From assembly GCA_963788655.1 (NCBI GenBank), contig CAWBHS010000027.1:32001-96000 (forward strand): a DNA stretch of 64,000 nucleotides, in the 5' to 3' direction. Position numbers and translations under genes: made by a program. Shown here piece by piece: positions 71 to 49,521 of the stretch. The notes under the pieces are model-generated. The model was given only the letters and a program-made list of their open reading frames with translations. It did no database searches and was not told where the DNA came from. Position 1 is the stretch's first letter. Every line of letters starts with the position of its first letter. The DNA comes from an uncultured Verrucomicrobiae bacterium (GTDB lineage Bacteria; Verrucomicrobiota; Verrucomicrobiia; Limisphaerales; JAFGQR01).

Positions 71-2902
71 ATGAAACGACTTCTCACGGTGCTCACCATT
101 GTTGCCGCGTTCGCCGGGAACGCGCGCGCGGCCACACCCAATCGTTGGAGAGCGGTCCTCTCACCCGCAGGCAGTGTGCGGCTGGAGCGCGACGGTAAGG
201 AACTGGGCACGATGCGGCCCGGGCTGTTCGAGGTGCCTTGGCGATTCGCGAGCCTCAACGCCGGCAAGCCCGGGGCCGCCGCCAGTGACGGGGTGTATCG
301 CGGCCAGATTAACGCACCCAGCGGCCCATCCGTGGACACGGAGTTGCGCACGACCAGTCAAGCAGCGGGTGGACGGTTCGAATATCGACTGACGCCGCAG
401 CGCGAATTGAAACTAAACAGCCTGAATGTCACGCTGACTCTGCCTTCCGCAGCCTGGACGGGCGGAAAACTTTCCGCGGATGGCAAGGAGATCATGTTCC
501 CGTCGCAGCTCAAGGACATGCAACTGTGGTCCGCACCGACCAAGTCGCTGCAAATTGCCACGCCAGACGGTGCGGCACTACGACTCGATTTTGCCGAACC
601 GGCCCTCGTGCTGGTGCAGGACGACCGCCAGTGGGGCGAAACGTTTTCGGTGCGGATGGAATCGGTGAAGGCTCCGGAAACCTGGCCGGCAGGCCGCACG
701 ATGGCATTGACTTTCACGCTGAACGCACCCGACGGCGTGACGATCGAAGAAGACGGACCGGTAACCATTCGCGCCGGCGATGAATGGCTGCCGCTGGAGG
801 CGAGCCTCGATATCGAGCCGGGGTCGGCCCTGGACTTCAGCAGCCTCGTTCCGCGTCATGCACTCGCGGGTCAATTCGGCCGTGTCATTGTCAATTCACA
901 GGGCAAGTTCGCGTTCGAGCGCCGTGCGCAAACTGCTGCGCGCTTCTACGGCGTTAACCTCTGTTTCTCGGCACAATATCTCCCGCACGAACCGGCCGAT
1001 CGGCTGGCTGAGCGATTGGCCCGCCTCGGCTACAACGCGGTGCGGATTCACCATTACGAAAGCGAACTGGTTGAGCGCGGGCCGGGAAACGCGGGTCAAT
1101 TGAAACCAGACAAGCTGGACCAGTTCGACTATTTGTTCGCCGCGCTCAAGCGGCACGGCATTTACGTCACCACCGACTTGTTCGTGTCGCGGCCGGTCGC
1201 CCTGGCCGACATTTACGACGGCGAGTCGGGCAACATCGGGATGGATGAGTTCAAGATGGCGGTTCATGTCAATGAACGTGCGTTCGAGAACTACCAGACG
1301 TTTGCCCGCGCCCTGCTCGGCCATGAGAATCCTTACACCAAACTCCGCTACGCCGATGACCCGGCGCTGGCGTGGCTCAGTCTGGTGAACGAAGATTGCC
1401 CCGGCAACTTCATCGCCCGCCTCAAGGGCAAACTCCGTGACGACTGGCAGCGTGCATGGAATCGCTGGCTCGTAGCGCATTATCCCGACCGTACCGAATT
1501 GGCCCGCGCGCTCGGCAATCTGCGCGACGGCCAAGACCCAAAGAAAAACACCGTGCCGCTGCAAAACACTTATGGCCGCGAGCCAAGCACCGTCGTGTTC
1601 AACGTTTTTCTCGCTGAAGTTGAGCGTGATTTCTTCGAGCGCACGCGCAAATTCCTGCGCGATGAGCTGAACTGCCAGGCGTTGCTGACCGATTGCAACG
1701 CCTGGAGCAACCCCGTCCAGATGCAGGCGGTGCGCGGCGCGTTCGATTACGTGGACGACCATTTCTATGTGGACCATCCGCAATTCATCGAGCGCCCGTG
1801 GTCGTTGCCGTCGCGCTGTCCCAACACCAGCCCGATTGCCGAGGGCGCGCGCGGCGGACGCGGTTGCGCGTTCACCCGATTGTTTGGCAAACCGTTCACG
1901 ATCACCGAATTCAACTACGCCTCGCCCGGACGCTTCCGCGGCGTCGGCGGCATCCTCACCGGAGCGCTCGGCGCGTTGCAGGATTGGGACGGGCTGTGGC
2001 GATTCGCCTACAGCCACAGCCGTGATAACGTCGCCCGACCCGGGGCGATGAACTACTTCGATGTTGCCAGCGATCCCTTGAACCAGGCGGCCGAGCGCGC
2101 GAGCCTCTGCCTGTTTCTCCGTGGCGACATCCAACCAGCCAAACACGCCGTTGCCCTCGTCGCTACCACGGAGGAATTGCTGGGTTCGCCGAAAACCTCC
2201 CGTGACAAAACGCCATCGTGGCAAGGTCTGGCGTGGCTCACGCGTGTTGGTTGGGTCATTGGAAAGGACGAAAAACTCAGTCCGGATGTGCTCGCGCTTC
2301 CCTTTGCCGATGGCCAAGTCATGAATGGCGACCAAACCATTCTCAAAGCCCTGCAGAGCCGGCGCTGGTTGCCGGAGAATAGTGCCACGCAATTTGGACA
2401 GAACCGATTCCAGAGTGAGAACGGCGAAGTCACGATTGACGCTCCGAAAAACATCCTCACCCTCGATACGCCGCTGACCGCCGGCGGCTTTGCGCCCGCT
2501 GGACAGAAAATCGAGACGCGCGCTGCGCGCATCGAAGTGCTCGACACGGACGCGACCGTCTGGGTCAGCAGTCTCGACGGCAAGCCCATCGCTACAAGCC
2601 AACGGCTGCTGATCACGCACCTCACCGATCTGCAGAACAGCGACACCCGCTATGGCGACCGCGCGCGCCAGGTGCTGCTGGCATGGGGTCATCTGCCACA
2701 ACTCGTCCGTGCCGGTCGGGCCGTCGTTGCGCTTCACCTCGCCAACGCCAATCGAGCGAAGGTCTATTCCCTCGCCCTCACCGGCAAGCGCCTCGGCGAA
2801 GTCGCGACCGACGTCGGCGATGACGGCACATTTTCAATTCCGCTTTCCGTCGCCGCGGATGGCAAAGCCCGAATGCTTTACGAGGTGGAAATTCGCAACT
2901 GA
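71..2902 (+). CDS. Secreted clan GH-A (GH5-like) glycoside hydrolase with N-terminal beta-sandwich region
   Basis: Signal peptide MKRLLTVL..ARA from ATG 71; RFYGVNL, GYNAVRIHH, acid/base LVNE, DDHFY, nucleophile-like FTITEFN. Confidence 0.7.
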   Translation: MKRLLTVLTIVAAFAGNARAATPNRWRAVLSPAGSVRLERDGKELGTMRPGLFEVPWRFASLNAGKPGAAASDGVYRGQINAPSGPSVDTELRTTSQAAGGRFEYRLTPQRELKLNSLNVTLTLPSAAWTGGKLSADGKEIMFPSQLKDMQLWSAPTKSLQIATPDGAALRLDFAEPALVLVQDDRQWGETFSVRMESVKAPETWPAGRTMALTFTLNAPDGVTIEEDGPVTIRAGDEWLPLEASLDIEPGSALDFSSLVPRHALAGQFGRVIVNSQGKFAFERRAQTAARFYGVNLCFSAQYLPHEPADRLAERLARLGYNAVRIHHYESELVERGPGNAGQLKPDKLDQFDYLFAALKRHGIYVTTDLFVSRPVALADIYDGESGNIGMDEFKMAVHVNERAFENYQTFARALLGHENPYTKLRYADDPALAWLSLVNEDCPGNFIARLKGKLRDDWQRAWNRWLVAHYPDRTELARALGNLRDGQDPKKNTVPLQNTYGREPSTVVFNVFLAEVERDFFERTRKFLRDELNCQALLTDCNAWSNPVQMQAVRGAFDYVDDHFYVDHPQFIERPWSLPSRCPNTSPIAEGARGGRGCAFTRLFGKPFTITEFNYASPGRFRGVGGILTGALGALQDWDGLWRFAYSHSRDNVARPGAMNYFDVASDPLNQAAERASLCLFLRGDIQPAKHAVALVATTEELLGSPKTSRDKTPSWQGLAWLTRVGWVIGKDEKLSPDVLALPFADGQVMNGDQTILKALQSRRWLPENSATQFGQNRFQSENGEVTIDAPKNILTLDTPLTAGGFAPAGQKIETRAARIEVLDTDATVWVSSLDGKPIATSQRLLITHLTDLQNSDTRYGDRARQVLLAWGHLPQLVRAGRAVVALHLANANRAKVYSLALTGKRLGEVATDVGDDGTFSIPLSVAADGKARMLYEVEIRN

Positions 2903-3009
2903 ATTCGCCGCTGGCCAGCCGCATGAGCTTGGCGCCGGAGCGCATGGGGAAGCGAGCAAAGGCTTCGGAGAGATGCCAGTGGCTAAGAAGAAGCAATCGA
3001 TGGGGCAGA

Positions 3010-3468
3010 CTACGGCGGGAGGAAAACCGAAGTGTATCCTGCGACCAGCGCAAACTGGTGTTGCTGGCGATCGGAGGTCACGAAATGGTCGAAGCCAAAT
3101 TCCATTATCGCCACATGCAGCAGGTCGGCGGTGCGAACAGGTTGGGTGAGGCCGTGTTTCCGGGAGAGTTCTGCGACAGCGTCAAACACTTCGTCGTAGT
3201 CCACATCGAGAAAACCAAGCTGGCCCGTTTGGAGATGTTGCTCAAAAAACGCCAGACCTGCTTGATACTGCGCCGGCGTCAACAGCGGTTGGCCGGAGAC
3301 ATCGCGCAGCCACGTTTTCCGCCGCACGACATGGAGGATTTCAATCTCGTTGAATCGCGACAACAAAGCCGGCGGTTCGTACTGCTGAAGCAAGGTGAAA
3401 GCCGCTGGCGAGTTAGGTTCGGGCCAGTAGAGTTTGAAGAGAAATCCGCTGTCGAAGTACGCCCTCAA
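3010..3468 (-). CDS. vapC: PIN-domain toxin (VapC family)
   Basis: AYFDSG..KLY..EP, RTADLLHVA, FVTSDRQQ acidic PIN motifs; overlaps the antitoxin stop codon. Confidence 0.85.
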   Translation of the reverse strand: MRAYFDSGFLFKLYWPEPNSPAAFTLLQQYEPPALLSRFNEIEILHVVRRKTWLRDVSGQPLLTPAQYQAGLAFFEQHLQTGQLGFLDVDYDEVFDAVAELSRKHGLTQPVRTADLLHVAIMEFGFDHFVTSDRQQHQFALVAGYTSVFLPP

Positions 3469-4030: not shown

Positions 4031-4289
4031 CGCGCGCGACACGCAGCGCGCAATGAGCGGGTTACGAGCGTTGATCTGTATTTCCGCTCGGCACTGGCAG
4101 ACCATGGCACATGTCAGGTTGGAATTTAGAGTCAAGAGGGTTCGCATTACCAAACGAAGGCACGGCAAATCTTGAACCGGCAGCAGTAGGTAGTTACGCT
4201 CTGCCAAGTAATTCACTGATGCGTGTCGGCCTGAAGCTCGTTTTGTAGAGTTTTCCGTCGGCGCTCCAATGTTCAAAGTCTGTATGAAA

Positions 4290-7200
4290 ATGTCAGCCAA
4301 CGTCCAACAGCCAACTTACGAACCGGCCGTTATTCCGCTCTTTGGCCAGTCAATCCGGAATTCTGCCGAAAGTTGCACCAGCGCAAACTGGCTTTGGAGA
4401 GACGGTTCGGTGGTTCCCCGGGGGTTGGGCTTTTTGGCGATCCTGTGGATGGCTTTGGTGGCGCCGGACGTCGCCCAGGGCAGCCCCGCGGCAGCCATCC
4501 CTAATCTCGAGGTTCTCCAGGGCGCGTTCGGCGACGAAGACGCCGCCGCATTTCGCGAACCTTCCCGGGTTTTTCACCCTGAAACTTGGTTTCACTTCAT
4601 CGGCGGGAACGTCGCCACGCAAGGCATCACCGCGGACCTGGAGGCAATCGCCGGCGCCGGGATCGAGGGCGTTCAACTGTTTCACGGGCAGTTCGGCGGA
4701 CCCTGGCCGGGCGTCGCGCCGCAAATCAAGTGTCTGAGCGAGCCGTGGAACGGAGCAGTACGCCACGCAGCAGAAGAGTGCCGGCGGCTTGGTCTGCGCT
4801 TCACGATGCAGAATTGCCCGGGCTGGGCAATGGCGGGCGGGCCGTGGATCACGCCGGACAAGGCGATGCGGCATCTGGTGTGGAGCCGCAGTGACGTGCC
4901 CGGCGGCAGCAACGTGAACATCGCCCTGCCACAACCGCAGCCGAGCCGCGAGGCGTGGCGCGATTACCGCGAGGTCGCGGTAGTGGCCTTCCCAACACCG
5001 GACGGAGACACGGGCAAAGCGCTGGTGCCCGTGTCAGTGAAAAGCAACCGGGACGATTTGCCTTGGGAAAAATGCCTGCGCAATGAACAGGACGGGAAAA
5101 TTGTTCTCGAACCGAGTAAGGAGCCGGTCTGGGTGGAAGTCACTTTCAAGGACGCGGTGACGCTCCGGACGGTCGAGTTTCCGTCGGTCCAGGGCTTCAA
5201 TCATCAATGGTGCTATGTCCCCGGCGTGACGGTCACGGTGCAGGCGGTGTTGCCGGAGGGAATGCGCGAAGTCGCACGTCACGAGATGCCGGAGAGCAAT
5301 TGGCAAGACAACAAACCGATCTCGCTGGCGTGTTCGGAAGTGCCGGCCAGGACTTACCGCATCATCATTGATAACCAGCACACCATGAGCTTGCCCTACC
5401 TCCAGCTTTTCACGGTTGCGCGGAAGAATAATTGGGAAGCCGAGGCAGCGTTCACCCTGCGCGGCTTGGATCGCGCGCCGCACCCACGGCAGGCGATGTC
5501 GGCATGGATCGATCCCGCGCGGATCGTGGATCTGACGGAGAAGATGGATGCCGGGGAACGCTTGCGCTGGAAAGCGCCGGCCGGCCACTGGACGGTGCTG
5601 CGTTGGGGTCACGTGAACACCGGCAGACGCAACGGGCCGGCGCCACCCGAGGCGACGGGTTGGGAGTGCGACAAACTCTCCCCGGTCGGTGCCGACACGC
5701 ACTTCGCCGGATACATCGGAAGGCTCTCGGCCAAGAACGGACCGGTTGGCGGCGGGCTGATGCAAGGCATGGTGCTCGACAGTTGGGAATGCGAGACGCA
5801 GACATGGACGCCGGGCATGGATGGGCAATTCGCGCGGTTGCGCGGTTATCCGCTACGGGCGTGGTTCCCGGCGCTGGCGGGATATGTCGTCGGTGATCCC
5901 GAAACCACTGACGCGTTTCCTGCGCGACTGGCGGGCGACGGTGAACGATCTGCTGGTCGAGAATTTCTTCGGGCGCATGGCAGCGTTGGGGCACAAGAAC
6001 GGCTTGGCGATCTCGTTTGAAACAGCCTCGGGAGACGTGTTCCCCGGCGACATCCTCGAGTATTACAAATACGCCGACGTGCCGATGTGCGAGTTCTGGC
6101 AACCGAGGACCGAAGCCTTCGTCGGCAGCTTCGAGTTCAAACCAGTCAAGCCGTGCGTGTCCGCGGCGCGGATGTACGGCAAGCCACGCGTGGCGGCCGA
6201 GTCCTTCACGTCGTTCAACCTGACGTGGAACGAACATCCCGGCATGTTGAAGCACATCGCGGATATCCACTTCGCCGAAGGCGTCACTCACTTGGTATTC
6301 CACACCTACACCCACAACCCGCGCACGGATTGGCTGCCGCCGGGCACGGCGTTCGGTTCGGGGATCGGCACGCCGTTCCTGCGCGGTCAAACCTGGTGGC
6401 GGACGATGCCGGAGTTTACGACGTATCTGGCCCGGTGTAGCTATTTGCTGGAGCGCGGTCGCCCAGTGTCGGACGTGCTTTGGTATTTGGGCGACGAGCA
6501 GGATCACAAGCCGCCTCAGAATGCGCTTTTTCCCGCCGGATTCCGTTATGACTACTGCAATCCGGATGTCCTGCTCCATCGTTTGTCGGTGATTGATGGC
6601 AAGATCGTCACGCCGGAAGGCTTGCGCTATCGCGTGCTGTGGTTGCGCGATTGTCCCCGCATGTTGCCGGAGACGCTCGAACGGATGTTATCGCTCGTGA
6701 AGCAAGGGGCAGTGCTGGTCGGCGAGCGACCGCAGGGCTTGGCCACTCTGAGCGGCGGGGCTCGTTCTGAGAAACGGTTTCGCAGTGCTGTCAAGGCGCT
6801 TTGGGGCCGCGATGCGGCTGTGAACGGGTTACGGCAGGTGGGGAAAGGAAGTGTGATCGCCGGGATATCTCTGGGCGACGCGCTGGCAAAACTCGGCCTC
6901 GAACCCGATGTCGAAGGCGATGGCGTGGTCTGGACGCACCGGCAAACGGAGGGCGCCGACTGGTACTTCGTGGCGGCTTCGTCACCACAAGGTTTTCGCG
7001 GCACGCTCCGGTTCCACGCCGTCGGCGCGGTCGAATTGTGGAATCCGCTCACGGGCACGGCGACATCCGCCGGGGTGGTGCGACGGGATGCAGACACGAG
7101 CTTGGTCGCGCTGGAACTTCCGCCGTCCGGATCGGTCTTCGTCGTGTTCCGGGGCGCCGGCCAGACGACCTCGAACCACGTCGTCCGGCTCGAACACGAT

Positions 7201-8121
7201 GGCGCGACCGTGGCGGACGCGCAGGCGACGCGTAAAGTGGCGAGTGGTCTGCAGGTGGTTTCCGCCAGCTACGGTGATCCCGCAAATCCCGCGCGGCGGA
7301 TGGATGTGACCGACCTTGTCCGCCAGGACTTGTCGCGTGGCCTGACCACGATCGCCGCCAACAATGACTGGGCCGGCGGCGATCCGGCCTTGAAGACAGT
7401 CAAGAAGCTGTGGGTCGTGATCCGACTACCAAACGGACAAGCGAAGCACCTCGAGGCCACCGAAGGCGAGACGCTGCCCGTCGTTGACCCGGCTCCCGCG
7501 CCGCGACCCGCGTGCGACATTTTGGACGGTGGCACCCGACTGCTAGCCTGGGAGTCGGGCGTTTACCGCGAGACCCGAGAGGACGGAACATCTTCTAAAT
7601 GGGAGACCCAGGCACCGAGAGTTGTCTCACTGACGGGACCTTGGACCCTGGCTTTCCCGGCTGGCTGGGGCGCGCCCGAATCACTGCGGGTGGGCAAACT
7701 AAAGTCTTGGACGGAGTTGAATCTTTCTCCCGAGGCGCGGGCGTTTTCCGGAACGGCAACGTACACCACCGAATTTACCTTGGACCCGCTTTCGAAGGAT
7801 TCGCGTATGGAACTTGACCTGGGGCGCGTGGAGGTCATCGCCAGCGTGCGTCTCAACGGCGAACCAGTCGGGACCGTTTGGACGCCGCCATACCGGCTGG
7901 ACGTAACCCGACTGGCGAAGCCCGGCGTCAACCGCCTCTCGGTGGAAGCAACCAGCACCTGGTTCAACCGACTGGTTTACGACGCGGGGCAGGACGAAAA
8001 AGCGCGTAAGACGTGGACCATCAGCGGTCCCGCCAAAGGCAGGGCTCTTCGACCCGCGGGCCTCTTGGGTCCGGTGACCGTGCGGATCGGCCAAACGCTG
8101 ACTACGCGCGACCGTCGATAG
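4290..8121 (+). CDS. GH106 alpha-L-rhamnosidase-like glycoside hydrolase (one frameshift near 5909; start uncertain)
   Basis: PETWFHFIGGN..GITADLEA, GWAMAGGPWITP, LDSWE, PMCEFW, VAAESFT, LDLGRVEVIASVRLNG; removing one base at GAAACCACTGACG joins ORFs 4269..6020 and 5821..8121. Confidence 0.85.
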
Positions 8122-11529: not shown

Positions 11530-12129
11530 TTATGACCGTTCACGAAAATCAAGCTGATTCACCAAGGCGCCGTAACCGCGCTTCTGCAGTCGCCGAAGCG
11601 ATTCTTTGAAAGCGGTAATTTCCGCGAGTTGAATTTTAAGCCACTTCTCGTCCGCCTCATCGAACGTATCGAGTTTCAGGATATCCTCGTAATAACGTTT
11701 CGCGGACATGATCGGGCGGGCGAGATCAATGATCGTCAGCTCGCTTCCGGAATCTGAGGTGGAGTAGTTGATTCCGTAGTAGCGCTTGTGCTGCGGCAAG
11801 AACAGGAAACCCTTGCGCTTGCCTTTGAATTCGCTTTCACACCGTTTGAACGCTTCGACACTCAGACGCCCGGGGATAATAATCTGAACCAGTGTTTTCT
11901 CTGATTGAAACTGGCCCGCGGATTTGAATTGCGGCGGGTCGCAGCCTTCCACCGCGGAGTAGAGCTCAAATTGCTCCCGGTCGATGGCGGAGGAGACGGG
12001 GTCCAGGAAATTGTAAAAGTAGCCGACCGCGAGGCCCACTCCCACGACGTCCGTGTCCTGTTTATTAAGGCCATCAAAAAACTTTTCGACGGCCTTGATG
12101 CCGATTGCTGTCGCGATTTGTTCCCACAT
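11530..12129 (-). CDS. Stand-alone prokaryotic STING-like cyclic-dinucleotide receptor domain protein
   Basis: GLAVGYFYNFL, VQIIIP..L, KRYY, IIDLA, EITAFKESL occur in the order and spacing of bacterial STING motifs; 199 aa from ATG 12129. Confidence 0.7.
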   Translation of the reverse strand: MWEQIATAIGIKAVEKFFDGLNKQDTDVVGVGLAVGYFYNFLDPVSSAIDREQFELYSAVEGCDPPQFKSAGQFQSEKTLVQIIIPGRLSVEAFKRCESEFKGKRKGFLFLPQHKRYYGINYSTSDSGSELTIIDLARPIMSAKRYYEDILKLDTFDEADEKWLKIQLAEITAFKESLRRLQKRGYGALVNQLDFRERS

Positions 12130-12439
12130 AGCTAGGTTGTCAATTATTCTCCGGTTGTCTGAATTAATGCCCGGCACCGACCGGGACGCCTGCTCCGGAT
12201 CGTCCCCCCACTCGGCGGGTCACCGGCGCAACCACGGGCTTGAACATCCACCATCGAAACGGGAACTGCCAATCCAAAAGTGCCGTCCGGGCTGAATGCC
12301 GGCTGACGGCACGAGTCCACCGAAGCGGGTGCCTTCCAAGACAAACCTTGACCGACAAGGGCTGAAGTGAAATGAATTTCCTCTCGCTAAAAACAGTCTT
12401 TAGCTGACACAACGAATAACATTAGATGCATGCTTTGAT

Positions 12440-44214: not shown

Positions 44215-46708
44215 TTAGTCCACGGAAATAGCCCGGTAAAAGCGCCGTGGCTGGCCGGCAGCCGATTGATCAACATACCAGTGTGGGCTTGCTGTCAGGG
44301 TTATCGTCTCCAATTCCGTCCAACCGCTTGGGTTGTTTAGATCGGTGGTGAATTCAATTCGGTAGTTCACCCCGGCAGCACCTGTGAGTTTGAGGCCCGG
44401 CATCAGGTACATTTCCAGGACTGACACATTGAAGGGCTCGCTGATCGCCGAACCGAAACCGTTCACGACAACACGATAGGCCCCAGCATTCTCAGCGGTG
44501 AGATTTTCGAGGACCAATATCCCATTCGTCGCACCGACGATGTCGATGCCATTGAACTGCCATTGAAAGGCAAATGGACCGCTGCCGGTCATGCCGGCGT
44601 TCAGTGTGACGGTTTCGCCCGAGGAGACGGTCCGGCTCACTGGCTGTTCCGTGAAGGTTGGCGGCAGCATGAACAGGTCGGCAGGCCCTTGTTTATTTGC
44701 AGGCCCTTGAGTCAGCGCCACCTTGCCCGATCCATCAGGCCGCATAGCCCAGACTTGGTTTTGGCATAGGAAGAGAATGAATTTGCCATCCGGCGTCCAG
44801 GTCGGCGTTCCGCAGTCCCAGGGCCATTCGGTCGTGATGTTGACCGGATTGCCACCATCAATGTTCATAGTCCAAATGTCACCGTTGCCGCTGAAAACAA
44901 TCCGGCTGTTATCCGGCGAAATATCGGAGTGGGTGAACGCCGCCCCGCTGGGCCGGAACCATGCCGTCAAGTTCGTCAGCACGCCGGTGATTACGTCGTA
45001 CAGAAACTCATCGCTCTGATAGGTTGGCACCGCCCAATTCGAGCCGATGACATACCGGCCGTCCCGCGACGCACGCGTATGGGATAAACGAAACGGCAAG
45101 TTGGTCAGGACTGAGCCATCGGGATGAAGTAATCGCACGTAGCCGTAAACCGGATGACACACAATCCAGTCGCTGTTCGTCGGAGCGTGCGGCCACACCA
45201 TGTCTTGGGATCCGTCCGTCAGGAATCTCAGGTCGCTGCCGTCCGGTTTGATCAGACAGACTCTCGCTCCGAAGGCTGGGCCACCCGTAAACAAAATATC
45301 ACTACCGTTTGAGAACCAACTTGGCTGAGTGGCTGCACCCGCGCTGGCGGCGGGGATATTCGGAACAGTGTTACTTTCACCCGTCAAAAGGTTCCACACC
45401 ACCAGTTCATATTGGTCAGTACCTGAATAACAGAACACCTTCTGGACGAGGTGGAGACTGAATCCAAGCCAGGCTGATGGCGCCGATAAGGCCGGGAACC
45501 GCTTGAAGCACAGTGCCGTTCAATGCACTGTACAGATTCACCGTGCCCGCATTGTTGACCAGCAGGTCATCGTAGCCGTCACCATCCTGATCCGGAACGG
45601 CAATGCCGATGTCGTCAGAGTTTGGGACAGGAATCGCATCCCAAATCGTGCTGCCGGTTTGCAGATCCAGACAAACTGAACGGTCCTGATGACGCCAGCC
45701 CGAAAGCACGTAATAACCCGTGGAAGTTGGAACCAGCCCTAATATTGTTTGGTTGTTGTAGGCCGAGTTACAAGACCATATTACCTGCCCGTCGATGCCC
45801 CGATAGCGGCGAATGCCGCCGGCACCGGACGAACCTTGGGCGGCGACCAGGAAATCCGACGTTCCAGGAACCGGACGGATCCCCAGCACGTCGAATGCGC
45901 TGAAATGCTGCTGCCAGACAATTTCCCCGGCAGTACCGTCGAGCATAAGCACGCGATCGTCGTAACAGCATTGCCCCACAGCGTAGTCTGCCTTGCCGTC
46001 GCCGGTCACATCGGGAACCGCGATCCCACCCCGGCTGATCTGGGGATTCTGCCAGAGGACTGTGGTCCCATCGAGACCACTCAGACAAATGAGTCCGCCG
46101 CCTCCGGCACCCAGGTATTGTGAGCGGACGATGACATCGTAAATCCCGTCCCCATCGACATCCGGAACAAATCCGGAAGCCCAGTAATCACCCGTTGGAG
46201 ATGTATAATCCCAGATCGTCTGGCCGCTCTCTCCATCCACACACAGCACATGACTCGAACCACTGCCTGAATTGTCCCTCCGGCAGATCAGGATGTCGGA
46301 CGCGGACGTTCCGCCAACATTCGGAGGACCTTCCGGGAATTGTGTCGTGTCCGTATAGATCGTGTGATGGAGCACGGCATCCAAGTGACCGTAGGCCGGG
46401 AATCCTGCAATCTGCCATTTCAAGACTCCCGAGTTCCCGCTCAAGCAGTAAGTCACCGTCACGGCATTGCTGGCGCAGATGATGAGGACATCGTAATCCC
46501 CGTTGCCATTCGGAAATACCTGGGCATCTTGACCGATATTGCCACTCGGGCAGTTCCAATTCCAATTGGTCCGACTGGCCAGGACATCCGTGGACTGGGC
46601 GCTGGACTGGCTGAGCGTTAGTACGTTGCCGCTATTTGACGCTGCATCCGCTTGGAGCAGCGTCGCCACGGCCAGGCCTATAGCGGTTATTAATTGACTT
46701 CGTTTCAT
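44215..46708 (-). CDS. Secreted beta-propeller protein (FG-GAP/PQQ-like + TolB-like + Ig + FYR C-terminal domain; frameshift near 45450)
   Basis: Signal peptide MKRSQLITAIG; DVDGDGIYD, DVTGDGKAD; SPDNSRIVF, PTWTPDGK; FTEQP..FQWQFNG..GAYRVVV; RRFYRA. Confidence 0.75.
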
Positions 46709-46947
46709 TGGTTTCGCCTTTCTTGTTTCAGGGTATTTTGGTTGACCGAAGCTGCGGAAAACTGGCGCCAGCCAGCGCGACCCCGGCGACAACAACTCCC
46801 CAAATCTTTTTCAGTTGCGAAAGTTGCTGTTTTCATGTTCACCTTCCTTTACGGGAACCTGAATGCGTTCATGCAGATGTTGCAAAATACTTTAAGCCCC
46901 ACTGCCAAGCGTGTGATCACGAGCGCAGAAAGATTTGCGGCCAACCT

Positions 46948-47766
46948 ATGAAAGCAGAGAGCCCTGGACAGAACGCAGCGTATCCCCCCACCCGCTGGAC
47001 CCTTGTTTTCCGCGCGCAAGATTTGGAAAAAACGCAGGGCCGTGACGCCTTGGGCGAAATCTATGAAAAATACCGCGAACCTCTGCTCGCGCATTTGCGT
47101 TGGCGGTTTCCCTATTGGCAGGATCGCGTGGAAGATTGGTTCCAGAGTTTCGTCGAGAAGAAAATCCTCGAGTACAAGCTGCTTGAACATGCGGACAGAA
47201 ATCGCGGCCGGTTTCGCACCTTCCTGCTGAACGCGCTCGACAATTTCGTTTTTGAAATATTGGAGAAAGCGAACGCCGCCAAGCGAACGCCGAAAGGTGG
47301 TTTTGTTTTTGTGGACCACCCGGATTATCAGGAGCCGGCGGATCCGAAATCGTTGCGCTCCGATCCCGGCGATGTCGAGTGGGCACGCGAGGTTCTTGCT
47401 CAGGCCGTTGGAAGAACCCAGAAATTTTACGAAACGAAGGGCGATGGGAAGAAATGGTGCGTATTCTATCTGAGCCGACTGAAACCAATGTTTACCGGCG
47501 AGAAAAGTCCCGCTTACGAGGATATCGCCGTAGAATGCGGCATGCCAGTTGCAAACGTTAACGCGGTAATCTTCAATGTAGTGAGGAAACTCAAGACGGA
47601 ACTACACTCAGTCGTCGGAGAATACGCCGAAGGTGATGAAGCCAGACTGGAGGAAATCCAGCATTTGATCGACATTCTCGGGGACGCGGATCAAGGGGAC
47701 GATTCAGCCGAGAAAGAACGCAAAGATCCCGAAGATGGAAACCAGGACAAGAAACTCACCGATTAA
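46948..47766 (+). CDS. ECF-type RNA polymerase sigma factor (PVC type)
   Basis: YPPTRWTLV, ALGEIYEKYREPL, RGRFRTFLL, YEDIA..GM, EEIQHL. Confidence 0.8.
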   Translation: MKAESPGQNAAYPPTRWTLVFRAQDLEKTQGRDALGEIYEKYREPLLAHLRWRFPYWQDRVEDWFQSFVEKKILEYKLLEHADRNRGRFRTFLLNALDNFVFEILEKANAAKRTPKGGFVFVDHPDYQEPADPKSLRSDPGDVEWAREVLAQAVGRTQKFYETKGDGKKWCVFYLSRLKPMFTGEKSPAYEDIAVECGMPVANVNAVIFNVVRKLKTELHSVVGEYAEGDEARLEEIQHLIDILGDADQGDDSAEKERKDPEDGNQDKKLTD

Positions 47767-47815
47767 ACTGCTCGATCAAGGCCGCTGTAACTCCTTATCT
47801 ATCTGCGTTCTTTGC

Positions 47816-48616
47816 TCGCAGCCCATAAGGCTGCCAGTCCAGCCGGTGGAAGTCCGGCGATGGTAAATGACGATGAACCATCCAGTGATAACCGACATGA
47901 GATTTCGGGGTGACCCGGCTCATGCAAGCTCGGTAGTAAACGTCCTGACCGGAGCAGGGCCAGCAACCTCTCCAGGCCGTAGCATCAAGCGAACGCTGCA
48001 GCTTCGTTACGCAACCCACGCGATCCGGAATCGTGGGACTTGTGGTGGTCGAGCCGGTGCAAAGACGGCGAAGACAGAATCCACGACGAAGGCATCGTCG
48101 AGTGCAGTCGTGGGCGCCACCGGAGTACGGGCGACGGCATGGGAGGAACGGACTGGCAGAGTAAATTGGGGACCCGCTACGGTTGGCGGGATGGACCCGC
48201 AATCCGACGGAATAATCCATAAGCCGTGGGATGGCCGTCAGAGGCGCAGATGTGGCCATAGTAAGCAACGATCCGGTCGGACAATACAACCGACTGGGGA
48301 GCCAAGGGCCACTGGATCCGCGGTTCAGGTCAGAAATCATCGGTGCCGCTTGGACGCAAGTCCGACTACGGATAAAACGCCGGGGATGGAGATACGAACA
48401 GTGACGGCCTATAAGCCGGCGTGGAGACGCTGGCGAAGGTGGCCGTGGCGTGAAGCGGGTTTGAAGCCGTACTGGGGAAAACCCACCGTACGGAATTTTA
48501 GAGGGGGTGGAGGAAACGAAATGCATGGCCTGGTAGCCGTTTGCCACGATGCCCGAAAGGGCCGATACCTTGGAAGTTACTGGCCTAAACATGTTCGCGC
48601 CTCCGCTCTACTCGAT
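47816..48616 (+). ncRNA. ORF-less group II intron (IIB-like; class E/F-type DV)
   Basis: DV AGCCGTACTGGGGAAAACCCACCGTACGG at 48465-48493; DVI ending CTACTCGAT; EBS1 GCAAAGA (48059-65) complementary to TCTTTGC (47809-15); DIII-like GTGGCCATAGTA..AAGGGCCAC; only ~150 nt in DIV. Confidence 0.88.
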
Positions 48617-48778
48617 GGCCACATTCGGGGCATGATCAAGAAAAAGTAACTGTCGGCTGCATAAAAACCACACAAATCCCGTAAACAATAAGAATGGCAA
48701 TCCCCGTAGCAGCCGAGGTAACGAGGCTCTAACTTAATTCTCTCAACCCTCAACCATGAACCCTCAACCGCCGCCAAA

Positions 48779-49306
48779 ATGAACGATTCATCCCAGGAAA
48801 TCCTCAAAGCCCCGGCCAAGCGTTTGTCTCAAATCATGAAGCTGGGCTTGGACCAAACTGGCCAGCTAACACCAGACGACTTGCGCTCCGTCTTGGAAGC
48901 CCAACTTGATTCCCCTATCCACGAGGTTATTGGACTGACGGCTCAAGCGTTAGAGCGCAACATGCAGGACACCGGCATTACTGCCGAAGATTTGCCTGGC
49001 ACATTGCGTGAACTGATGCAACAGCAACACCCTCCATTGCCATTACTCGAATTAGTGAAAGACTTCGCCAAGCGATGCCGGGAACAAGTGGACCATCCGG
49101 TGCCTTCGGAGGTTGCCACGCTGCTTTACTATCTCTGTATTGCAGTTGCTTTGAACCGGCACAACAAGCAGATCGCCCGATTAAGTGCAGTAAAAATAAA
49201 GGATGGTTTCAACTGGGTGCAGGCACAACCGTGGATCGACAATGACCTCAAGCAGTACTTTGCAGGAGAAAATCGCGGCAGTAGCCGTGGTAGTGACACT
49301 TATTAA
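48779..49306 (+). CDS. Hypothetical helical protein downstream of the ECF sigma
   Basis: 175-aa ORF; PPLPLLELVKDFAK, EVATLLYYLCIAVAL, W..AQPWID. Confidence 0.65.
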   Translation: MNDSSQEILKAPAKRLSQIMKLGLDQTGQLTPDDLRSVLEAQLDSPIHEVIGLTAQALERNMQDTGITAEDLPGTLRELMQQQHPPLPLLELVKDFAKRCREQVDHPVPSEVATLLYYLCIAVALNRHNKQIARLSAVKIKDGFNWVQAQPWIDNDLKQYFAGENRGSSRGSDTY

Positions 49307-49521
49307 TTCTCAATTTACTTTGCTGAGCACCAGTTTGCCTGGTTAACAACTCTTGCTGTCGGTGGCCAAGCAGAGTAGCACTTCGGGCACCGCCTCCCAA
49401 GGAAAAGGAAGACCTGCGCTTTATCAATTGGAGCTGAAACCGTTTTGTACGGTTCACGCCATTTCAAGCCACCTTCTTTGCCGGTGGGTTCTGACTTCGT
49501 TGGCACAAGGTCGCGTCGGCC

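Follow-up and report, generated by a model that had tools for sequence, protein, structure and literature searches.

A probable ORF-less group II intron with a non-canonical 5′ end in an uncultured Verrucomicrobiae bacterium, and its family of relatives

INTRODUCTION

Group II introns without an open reading frame (ORF) are described as rare in bacteria, with room for further hidden ones only if their domain V (DV) is unlike the known ones (PMC4424553). Those in Trichodesmium dnaN and among the Thermosynechococcus derivatives, together with C.te.I1, are described as having no intron-encoded protein, their splicing or mobility reportedly depending on the reverse transcriptase (RT) of a related intron in the same genome (PMC4424553, PMC12584367). 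Here we analyse a further ORF-less candidate, at 47816..48616 on the forward strand of a 64,000-nt stretch of contig CAWBHS010000027.1 from an uncultured Verrucomicrobiae bacterium; this whole 64-kb stretch is called the window, and coordinates refer to it unless a locus name (L004 and the like) is given. An earlier note, made from the sequence alone, had proposed an ORF-less group II intron there, and every feature that it named proved to be present at the position named.

Two other kinds of natural group II ribozyme provide comparisons. HYERs are ORF-less, belong to class IIC and are reported to recognise a site of 6 nt, HYER1 having a length of 637 nt (PMC11754743, PMC12990946). Circularly permuted group II RNAs have the boundary motifs GGGCG and NU, compared with GUGYG and AY in introns, according to the account of Roth et al. 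2021 (PMC8637638). GUGYG is given as the general 5′ consensus of group II introns (PMC4424553), and the search of a later intron survey is described as using RF00029 (PMC8919778), the Rfam model of DV and domain VI (DVI).

We read the window element as a group II intron that is intact and non-autonomous, 801 nt long, without an ORF of its own and IIB-like in architecture, and put the probability of this reading at about 0.82. It belongs to a family that seems to be undescribed: full-text literature searches returned no account of this ORF-less family, and an earlier description is possible.

IDENTIFICATION OF THE ELEMENT AND ITS RELATIVES

Rfam was run at gathering scores over the whole window, and the only family found was group-II-D1D4-4 (RF02003), a domain I (D1) model, at 47840-47987 (57.9 bits against a gathering score of 49; E=3.9e-10). 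When the 2-kb slice 47300-49300 was scanned at E<=10, the matches other than RF02003 were below their thresholds and chance-like.

Relatives were collected by scanning species-representative genomes with a DV pattern drawn from the window and Bradyrhizobium plasmid sequences, and all family counts below are of the matches listed. A family collected through such a pattern is underestimated both in breadth and in DV variability. The scan gave at least 122 loci, and when the window and one plasmid copy are added there are at least 121 distinct DV sites, 110 of them followed by a family-type DVI and 6 by another intron, while 5 are chance matches. Family DV sites number at least 116, in at least 10 phyla.

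Both ends could be delimited by motif in 36 elements including the window, with lengths of 759-865 nt. The profile built from these (the window and 35 relatives) aligns to window 47817-48615 with 433 bits. The closest relative among the matches listed is L004, from a Verrucomicrobia metagenome-assembled genome (MAG), which shows 83% identity over window 47811-48617 and has unrelated flanks.

SPLICE-SITE CONTACTS

The 5′ junction was examined through exon-binding site 1 (EBS1), comparing the loop heptamer at a fixed offset from a conserved GAAGRC motif with the seven bases directly upstream of the same element, where intron-binding site 1 (IBS1) should lie. Elements paired with their own flanks at 6/7 positions or more in 28/33 cases (mean 6.1), and this set holds 25 different EBS1 sequences. 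When elements and flanks were mismatched, the same level was reached in 2.6% of 1036 combinations (mean 2.8). Moving the junction 2 nt either way lowers the mean number of own-flank pairs from 6.1 to about 2.1. This own-flank covariation places the 5′ junction at 47816 with single-base precision. An initial test that accepted any hexamer in an 85-nt region found own flanks pairing in 34/38 elements, yet also 31% of mismatched ones; it was too permissive and was replaced by the fixed-offset test.

The remaining contacts also vary in concert. EBS2 and IBS2 are ACACGA/UCGUGU in L010, ACACGA/UCGUG in L043, ACGCU/AGCG in L004 and ACGCA/UGCGU in the window. EBS3 pairs with IBS3 in 10/11 members of the window's clade (C-G in 7, A-U in 3), L041 being mismatched. 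The γ–γ′ contact, in the window A48248 with U48616, is Watson-Crick in 35/36 elements (G-C 31, A-U 4), and the exception is L004 with a C/U mismatch. The earlier note had placed the 5′ splice site at 47816, assigned EBS1/IBS1 and EBS2/IBS2 as here, and drawn γ–γ′ between the J2/3 sequence AGA (48248-50) and the terminal U; all of these assignments are borne out by covariation among the relatives.

In class IIB introns EBS3 lies in an internal loop of D1 and pairs with the first base of the 3′ exon, while class IIA follows the δ–δ′ rule. With the classes so defined, the window element falls with IIB, having both an EBS2 and an EBS3-type recognition of the 3′ exon. A IIA-type δ–δ′ contact was considered and rejected: the base 5′ of EBS1 is mostly U (judged by eye) and shows no correspondence with the 3′-exon base.

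It is most improbable that the 5′ splice site lies elsewhere, for example at UGCG (47804-07), and that the search for complementarity produced UCGCA as a spurious start. CUGCG at 47803-07 does resemble GUGCG, and in a single-sequence fold it forms a hairpin with CGCAG at 47817-21. Homology with L004 and other relatives, however, begins at 47811-47818 and not at 47804; the GUGCA with which the family majority starts aligns base for base with UCGCA; and own-flank pairing collapses on the 2-nt shift described above. Other copies with a different 5′ boundary would, by the earlier note, have told against its splice site; the relatives place the 5′ junction at the same position.

The hairpin deserves mention in its own right. 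It extends over 47803-47821 and so spans the 5′ splice site, its 5′ strand overlapping IBS2 and its 3′ strand being intron bases 2-6, and it would compete with the EBS2-IBS2 pairing.

CONSENSUS FOLD

A consensus fold was obtained with RNAalifold from an alignment of 11 members of the window's clade. It has six domains in the canonical order D1 to D6, with 162 pairs in 28 helices. Standard pairs fill 94.5% of cells, against 82.2% in 500 shuffles (0/500 as high) and 36-46% when partners were slid. Compensatory changes on both sides are found at 81/162 pairs, against a shuffle mean of 48.2 and 14-26 with slid partners. The coordinates of the domains and contacts are collected in Table 1.

Domain IV (DIV) is closed by a helix (48314-21 with 48455-62) in which 5/8 pairs show compensatory changes. 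The earlier note had given it about 150 nt without an RT ORF, and its length is 149 nt, with no Pfam match in the ORFs that overlap it. The DVI basal helix has 13 bp, all intact, and compensatory changes are seen at 7 of these pairs. In the sub-clade that the window forms with L004, L006 and L011, DVI is longer by about 70 nt. The 3′ strand of DVI reads CCUCCGCUCU-A-CUC and then GAU, leaving A48610 bulged at position -7, where group II introns have their branch-point A (7-8 nt from the end), and in this fold A48610 is the putative branch point. The intron ends in ..ACUCGAU at 48616, and its last two bases, AU, fit the AY rule. Taken with the RF02003 match, the 433-bit family profile and the lack of an ORF, this covarying fold upholds the ORF-less group II intron that the earlier note had proposed.

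Group II introns have as DV a hairpin of some 34 nt, with a 2-nt bulge, a capping loop and, close to the base, a catalytic AGC or CGC. In the DV of the window element the AGC triad occupies 48465-67, CCGUAC (48467-72) pairs with GUACGG (48488-93) and UGGG with CCCA, and a 2-nt CC bulge lies at 48486-87 below the GAAAA loop. In this register C48467 pairs with G48493 and A48465 with U48496, and G48466 faces two bases, A48494 and A48495. In canonical DV the middle G of the triad forms a wobble pair with a U, and the capping loop has four bases; the capping loop of this family has five. The basal pair 48464-48497, which lay outside the scan pattern, covaries, being paired in 106/110 family DVs (A-U 72, C-G 26, G-C 6, G-U 2). 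The pattern itself required ..GGAA, and so is blind to how often relatives lack the AA. The upper-helix variant of the window is found in 14/116 sites, and its DV is one of the family's common forms.

Long open frames cross the intron on both strands, and one might take the locus to be protein-coding, through a 260-aa ORF at 47867-48649 (+) or a 265-aa ORF at 47795-48592 (-). The frames are near stop-free, and this is a tendency of the family: the longest antisense frame reaches at least 240 codons in 13/36 elements, with a median of 206, where dinucleotide shuffles give 142. However, Pfam matches neither ORF; substitutions are spread evenly over the codon positions (49/42/46 for the window against L004, and flat in four other pairs); long frames are missing from about half of the relatives; and the conservation is accounted for by base-pair covariation. 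The probability of a coding locus is negligible in our judgement, and both frames are probably non-coding. Because open frames of this length occur on either strand, gene callers are prone to annotate false hypothetical proteins on such elements.

Table 1. Features of the probable intron in window coordinates, and the 5′ ends of relatives that start with neither the family consensus nor UCGCA
Feature	Position or locus	Strand	Remarks
Whole intron	47816..48616	+	Family profile, identity to L004, exon-binding covariation at both ends
IBS2 (UGCGU), 5′ exon	47804-47808	+	Complementary to ACGCA at 48009-13
IBS1 (UCUUUGC), final 7 nt of 5′ exon	47809-47815	+	7/7 pairs with EBS1
5′ end UCGCA (family consensus GUGCA)	47816-47820	+	G3, C4 and A5 invariant in 11-sequence clade alignment
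Domain I	47822-48170	+	RF02003 match inside; helices with compensatory changes
T-loop-like hairpin in Domain I	47842-47858	+	
EBS2 (ACGCA)	48009-48013	+	Covaries with IBS2
EBS1 hairpin, stem GCCG/CGGC	48053-48069	+	EBS1 GCAAAGA at 48059-65
EBS3 candidate, C in loop GGAGUACGGG	48128	+	Pairs with IBS3 G48617
Domain II	48171-48247	+	Consensus fold
J2/3 (AGAU)	48248-48251	+	A48248 is γ
Domain III	48252-48312	+	Consensus fold
Domain IV	48314-48462	+	149 nt, without RT ORF
Domain V	48464-48497	+	AGC triad, CC bulge, GAAAA loop
Domain VI	48501-48613	+	Bulged A at 48610
IBS3 (G), first 3′-exon base	48617	+	Pairs with C48128
CUGCA 5′ end	L017, L041, L053		
CCGCA 5′ end	L074		
UUGCA 5′ end	L028		
AUGCA 5′ end	L010		
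ACGCA 5′ end	L076		

THE NON-CANONICAL 5′ END

Only G3 and C4 of the window's first five bases agree with GUGYG. The family majority begins GUGCA, 24/36 delimited elements starting with G, and in the window's clade positions 1-2 vary while G3, C4 and A5 are constant. UCGCA stands at the start of seven insertions with different flanks (the window, L004, L006, L011, L043, L064 and L071), which implies that this 5′ end existed while the lineage spread. The earlier note had seen UCGCA in place of GUGYG with G3 and C4 kept, and had thought of a lineage with an unusual 5′ end. The base-for-base alignment with the GUGCA majority agrees with the former, and the seven UCGCA insertions, with sisters starting CUGCA, CCGCA, UUGCA, AUGCA and ACGCA, bear out the latter.

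The classical contact of base 1 is that of G1 with the penultimate A. Across the 36 elements the combinations of base 1 and penultimate base are G/A 24, U/A 3, U/G 3, C/G 4 and A/A 2, so that a penultimate G occurs only alongside a pyrimidine at base 1 (7/7 cases). In the RNAalifold structure a helix of 2 bp joins bases 1 and 2 to -2 and -3 respectively, with 95.5% of cells paired, and in the window bases 1-2 (UC) can pair with GA at -3/-2. Since the independent changes are few and the four C/G copies are close relatives, this terminal helix is suggestive only. A partner for base 1 elsewhere in the intron was also sought, and the best columns merely track clade membership.

WEIGHING AN INTACT INTRON

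Several results weigh against an intact intron. The two most conspicuous concern its catalytic core and its start. RF00029 gave no match even at E<=10 in 47300-49300, and at E<=0.01 none on the family DVs of all the relatives' loci scanned (8/8). Of the Rfam models to which the earlier note had looked, that for D1 thus matches and that for DV/DVI does not, and the latter is formally the outcome that it had named as refuting its reading. The miss is explained by the family-wide DV deviation, in which the triad G faces AA, and not by absence of DV and DVI. To our knowledge G1 and U2 are near-universal in known group II introns, and both are replaced here.

The others concern the exon contacts and the surroundings. 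Pairing falls below 6/7 at the fixed loop offset in 5/33 elements; among these L010, L043 and L064 pair at a shifted loop offset (by eye), and L017 and L025 have imperfect EBS1 sites. L011, a member of the UCGCA clade, has 6/7 EBS1 pairs with an internal mismatch. There is no second copy of the intron within the 64-kb window, an RVT_1 match was found in 0/50 window ORFs scanned, and tblastn with two intron RTs found no match in the window.

Such results raise the question of a dead fossil, whose 5′ end decayed from GUGCA to UCGCA and which, without splicing or movement, is simply carried in an intergenic spacer. G1 and U2 would then have been lost, the window has neither another copy nor an RT, and in its position outside coding sequence a failure to splice would cost little. 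Decay does not account for the recurrence of UCGCA in the seven insertions, which lie in MAGs labelled Verrucomicrobia, Bryobacteraceae, Phycisphaerales, Isosphaeraceae and Methylomirabilota. Nor does it fit the state of the window copy, where the exon-binding pairs are perfect (7 + 5 + 1 bp), DV has a common family form with its upper-helix variant at 14/116 sites, and DVI keeps its branch A and all 13 pairs of the basal helix. We consider a fossil unlikely, and keep to an intact non-autonomous intron.

DISTRIBUTION AND INTEGRITY OF THE FAMILY

As their records are labelled, the hosts are Acidobacteriota, Planctomycetota, Verrucomicrobiota, Alpha- and 'Delta'-proteobacteria, Binatia, Nitrospirota, Methylomirabilota, Zixibacteria, Hydrogenedentota, a few Bacillota and others, and lineages of soil and groundwater carry the family in abundance. 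Three of its sources have been cultured, namely Edaphobacter modestus DSM 18101, Sorangium sp. So ce1128 and Bradyrhizobium plasmids. With carrier strains in culture, experiments are possible.

A D1 profile (the first 200 nt) was located 563-879 nt upstream of DV in 53/62 sites with at least 900 nt of flank, and at an RT-ORF-sized distance from DV in 0/62 of these sites among the matches listed. Judged by this spacing, all listed family members appear to be ORF-less. The 53/62 testable sites are full-length; the other 9/62 are 5′-truncated, their homology starting at profile positions 184-617, which is what incomplete synthesis of the cDNA would be expected to produce. For many of the DV matches a contig end is no more than about 60 nt away, a position typical of repeated elements.

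A blastn search against plasmids had a single match, the 54-nt DV/DVI region, on four Bradyrhizobium plasmids, with compensatory changes in both helices; against phages there was no match. The copy on the Bradyrhizobium sp. ISRA436 plasmid NZ_CP094520.1 (L001 3714-4098) is 5′-truncated and covers profile 440-834. It might have been taken for a short intron starting AUGUG at about 3731, which the profile rules out in favour of a 5′-truncated fragment. The plasmid is conjugative, and a cobalamin riboswitch (L001 4300-4500, 136.7 bits) is located about 200 nt downstream of the copy. A tandem arrangement is seen at L041 2304-3899 (the same as L042), where two copies are 798 nt apart and the 3′ end of the first, ..ACUCGGC, abuts CUGCAGCCC of the second with no spacer.

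NESTING WITH RT-ENCODING INTRONS AND MOBILITY

Matches to two intron RTs were found by tblastn in 21/123 loci (20 distinct stretches), and the nesting runs both ways. Family copies sit within RT-encoding hosts, in the same orientation, at L018, L039, L057, L037/L038, L056, L070, L073, L076, L068 and L048. At L018 (region 430-3200) and L039 the copy directly follows the host DV; the L018 host has a D1 matched by RF02005 with 182 bits and a 506-aa ORF at 711-2231. At L070 (1180-3498) and L073 the copy splits the host RT ORF between about aa 321 and 326. Several 3′ flanks resemble host DVI, for example UGCGGGGGGCG...CCCUACCGCGA.

In the reverse arrangement, a twintron, the family DV (..CCGUACGGAA) is followed at once by GUGYG, as in six loci (L044, L060, L064, L045, L104 and L110). 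The nested intron encodes an RT at L044 (about 500-3031, minus strand), L060 and L064, with a tblastn match in all three. The inner introns of L044 and L060 match RF02003 with 96-98 bits, and that of L044 has RVT_1 and GIIM by Pfam. At L044 the outer DVI resumes right after the inner intron's ..CCCUAC end, and the inner EBS1, UUCCGUA, matches the 3′ end of the outer family DV.

This frequent association with RT introns makes mobilisation in trans by the RT of autonomous introns plausible, much as the earlier note had proposed for a maturase, and the 5′-truncated copies also fit. Each copy stands beside its own IBS1, which indicates insertion by reverse splicing. On the window's features, the RNA would splice by branching at A48610, joining UCUUUGC to GGCCAC; the intron would have entered this site by reverse splicing into the DNA, its cDNA being made by an RT supplied in trans from an autonomous group II intron.

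We tentatively go further, at somewhat less than even odds, and suggest that the family is an unmodelled group II lineage, ORF-less only, which lives as a hyperparasite of RT-encoding introns. It would tolerate a DV G that has no wobble partner and faces AA. The 5′ GU would be dispensable, and in the window's clade would have given way to pyrimidines that pair with -2/-3 (U1-A, U1-G or C1-G; C2-G or U2-G), turning the contact of G1 with the penultimate A into a small terminal helix.

The element might instead act mainly as a HYER-like ribozyme, that is, as a trans-acting, guide-directed hydrolytic endonuclease on DNA or RNA rather than by splicing, although the two readings may be compatible. 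It is ORF-less and compact, and a first base other than G might disfavour branching. HYERs are reported to cleave both DNA and RNA hydrolytically, with the 6-nt recognition site mentioned above (PMC11754743, PMC12990946). They are, however, of class IIC, whereas the window element has EBS2 and a IIB-type EBS3. The conserved bulged A and the covarying γ–γ′ and EBS3-IBS3 contacts are features of two-step splicing and reverse splicing, and the precise placement of each genomic copy beside its own IBS1 shows insertion by reverse splicing. A mainly endonucleolytic role is thus quite unlikely, and we retain a mobile intron as the better account.

Class IIC introns have a short D1 without EBS2 and a short recognition site, and insert after terminator or attC hairpins. 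The window element differs in having a covarying EBS2, and there is no terminator-like site in 47092-49400, including the stretch between the upstream gene and the intron.

GENOMIC CONTEXT

The window is chromosomal, with IF-2, NusA and LpxD genes present. The intron lies between ORF 46708-47766, whose stop codon is 49 nt before it and which has a weak match, below cutoff, to an extracytoplasmic function sigma factor, and ORF 48779-49306, whose start codon is 162 nt after it. The intron is on the strand of both neighbours and would be transcribed with them.

Two other loci in the window may be recorded. A 215-aa ORF at 11530-12177 (-) has a prokaryotic STING domain (PF20300, E=9.1e-11) and may be part of a CBASS-type defence locus. 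The overlapping ORFs 4269-6020 (+) and 5821-8121 (+) match the N-terminal (profile 2-352) and C-terminal (351-737) halves of GH106 alpha-L-rhamnosidase; a single gene seems to have been divided here by a frameshift or sequencing error.

COMPARISON WITH KNOWN SYSTEMS

The nearest autonomous counterparts are the RT-encoding introns matched by RF02003, such as the inner introns of L044 and L060. They have the same D1 family, at 96-98 bits against 58-70 for the window's clade, and share with the window element the EBS1 hairpin context UCGAGCC-loop-GGCGAAGAC and the GAGCCAAGGGCC element in Domain III. They differ in encoding a 446-aa RT/maturase ORF (RVT_1 and GIIM), where the window element has none, and in starting with GUGCG instead of UCGCA. 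Their DV, by eye, has a CGC triad and is paired throughout, whereas the catalytic G of the window element faces AA. Our literature searches found no statement linking RF02003 to any of the named classes of bacterial introns (A to F and others).

Like the known ORF-less introns of bacteria, the window element has no intron-encoded protein. Those introns are described as rare and recent derivatives of ORF-carrying introns in single genomes (PMC4424553). Here the ORF-less form is a deep, widespread lineage of at least 116 DV sites in many phyla, with an ORF-carrying member at 0/62 sites. This family is the exception foreseen for hidden ORF-less introns, with a DV unlike the known ones, and it is missed by the DV/DVI model on which intron surveys rely.

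The nesting recalls archaea, in which introns with and without an RT ORF reportedly home to sites within other group II introns (Dai and Zimmerly 2003). The nesting seems alike, with family copies at the DV/DVI junction or in the host RT ORF. In our family it is also reversed, RT introns lying at the DV/DVI junction of family copies; the hosts are bacteria, and the window copy is in ordinary intergenic DNA.

Circularly permuted group II RNAs, as described by Roth et al., are likewise natural, bacterial and ORF-less, with deviant boundary motifs. Their order is D5-D6-D1-D4, while the window element keeps D1 to D6 (PMC8637638). At three positions regarded as near-invariant in the catalytic core or in defining the splice site (G1, U2 and the base opposite the triad G) the family offers natural variants, with apparent compensation, and such core variants bear on comparisons of group II introns with the spliceosome.

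HYERs are, from what has been reported of them, also natural bacterial ORF-less group II ribozymes. The window element, compared with them, is 801 nt long, has EBS1, EBS2 and EBS3, and carries the marks of insertion by reverse splicing. Its family would supply compact protein-free ribozymes with a programmable recognition of 12-13 nt, which is relevant to HYER-type tools.

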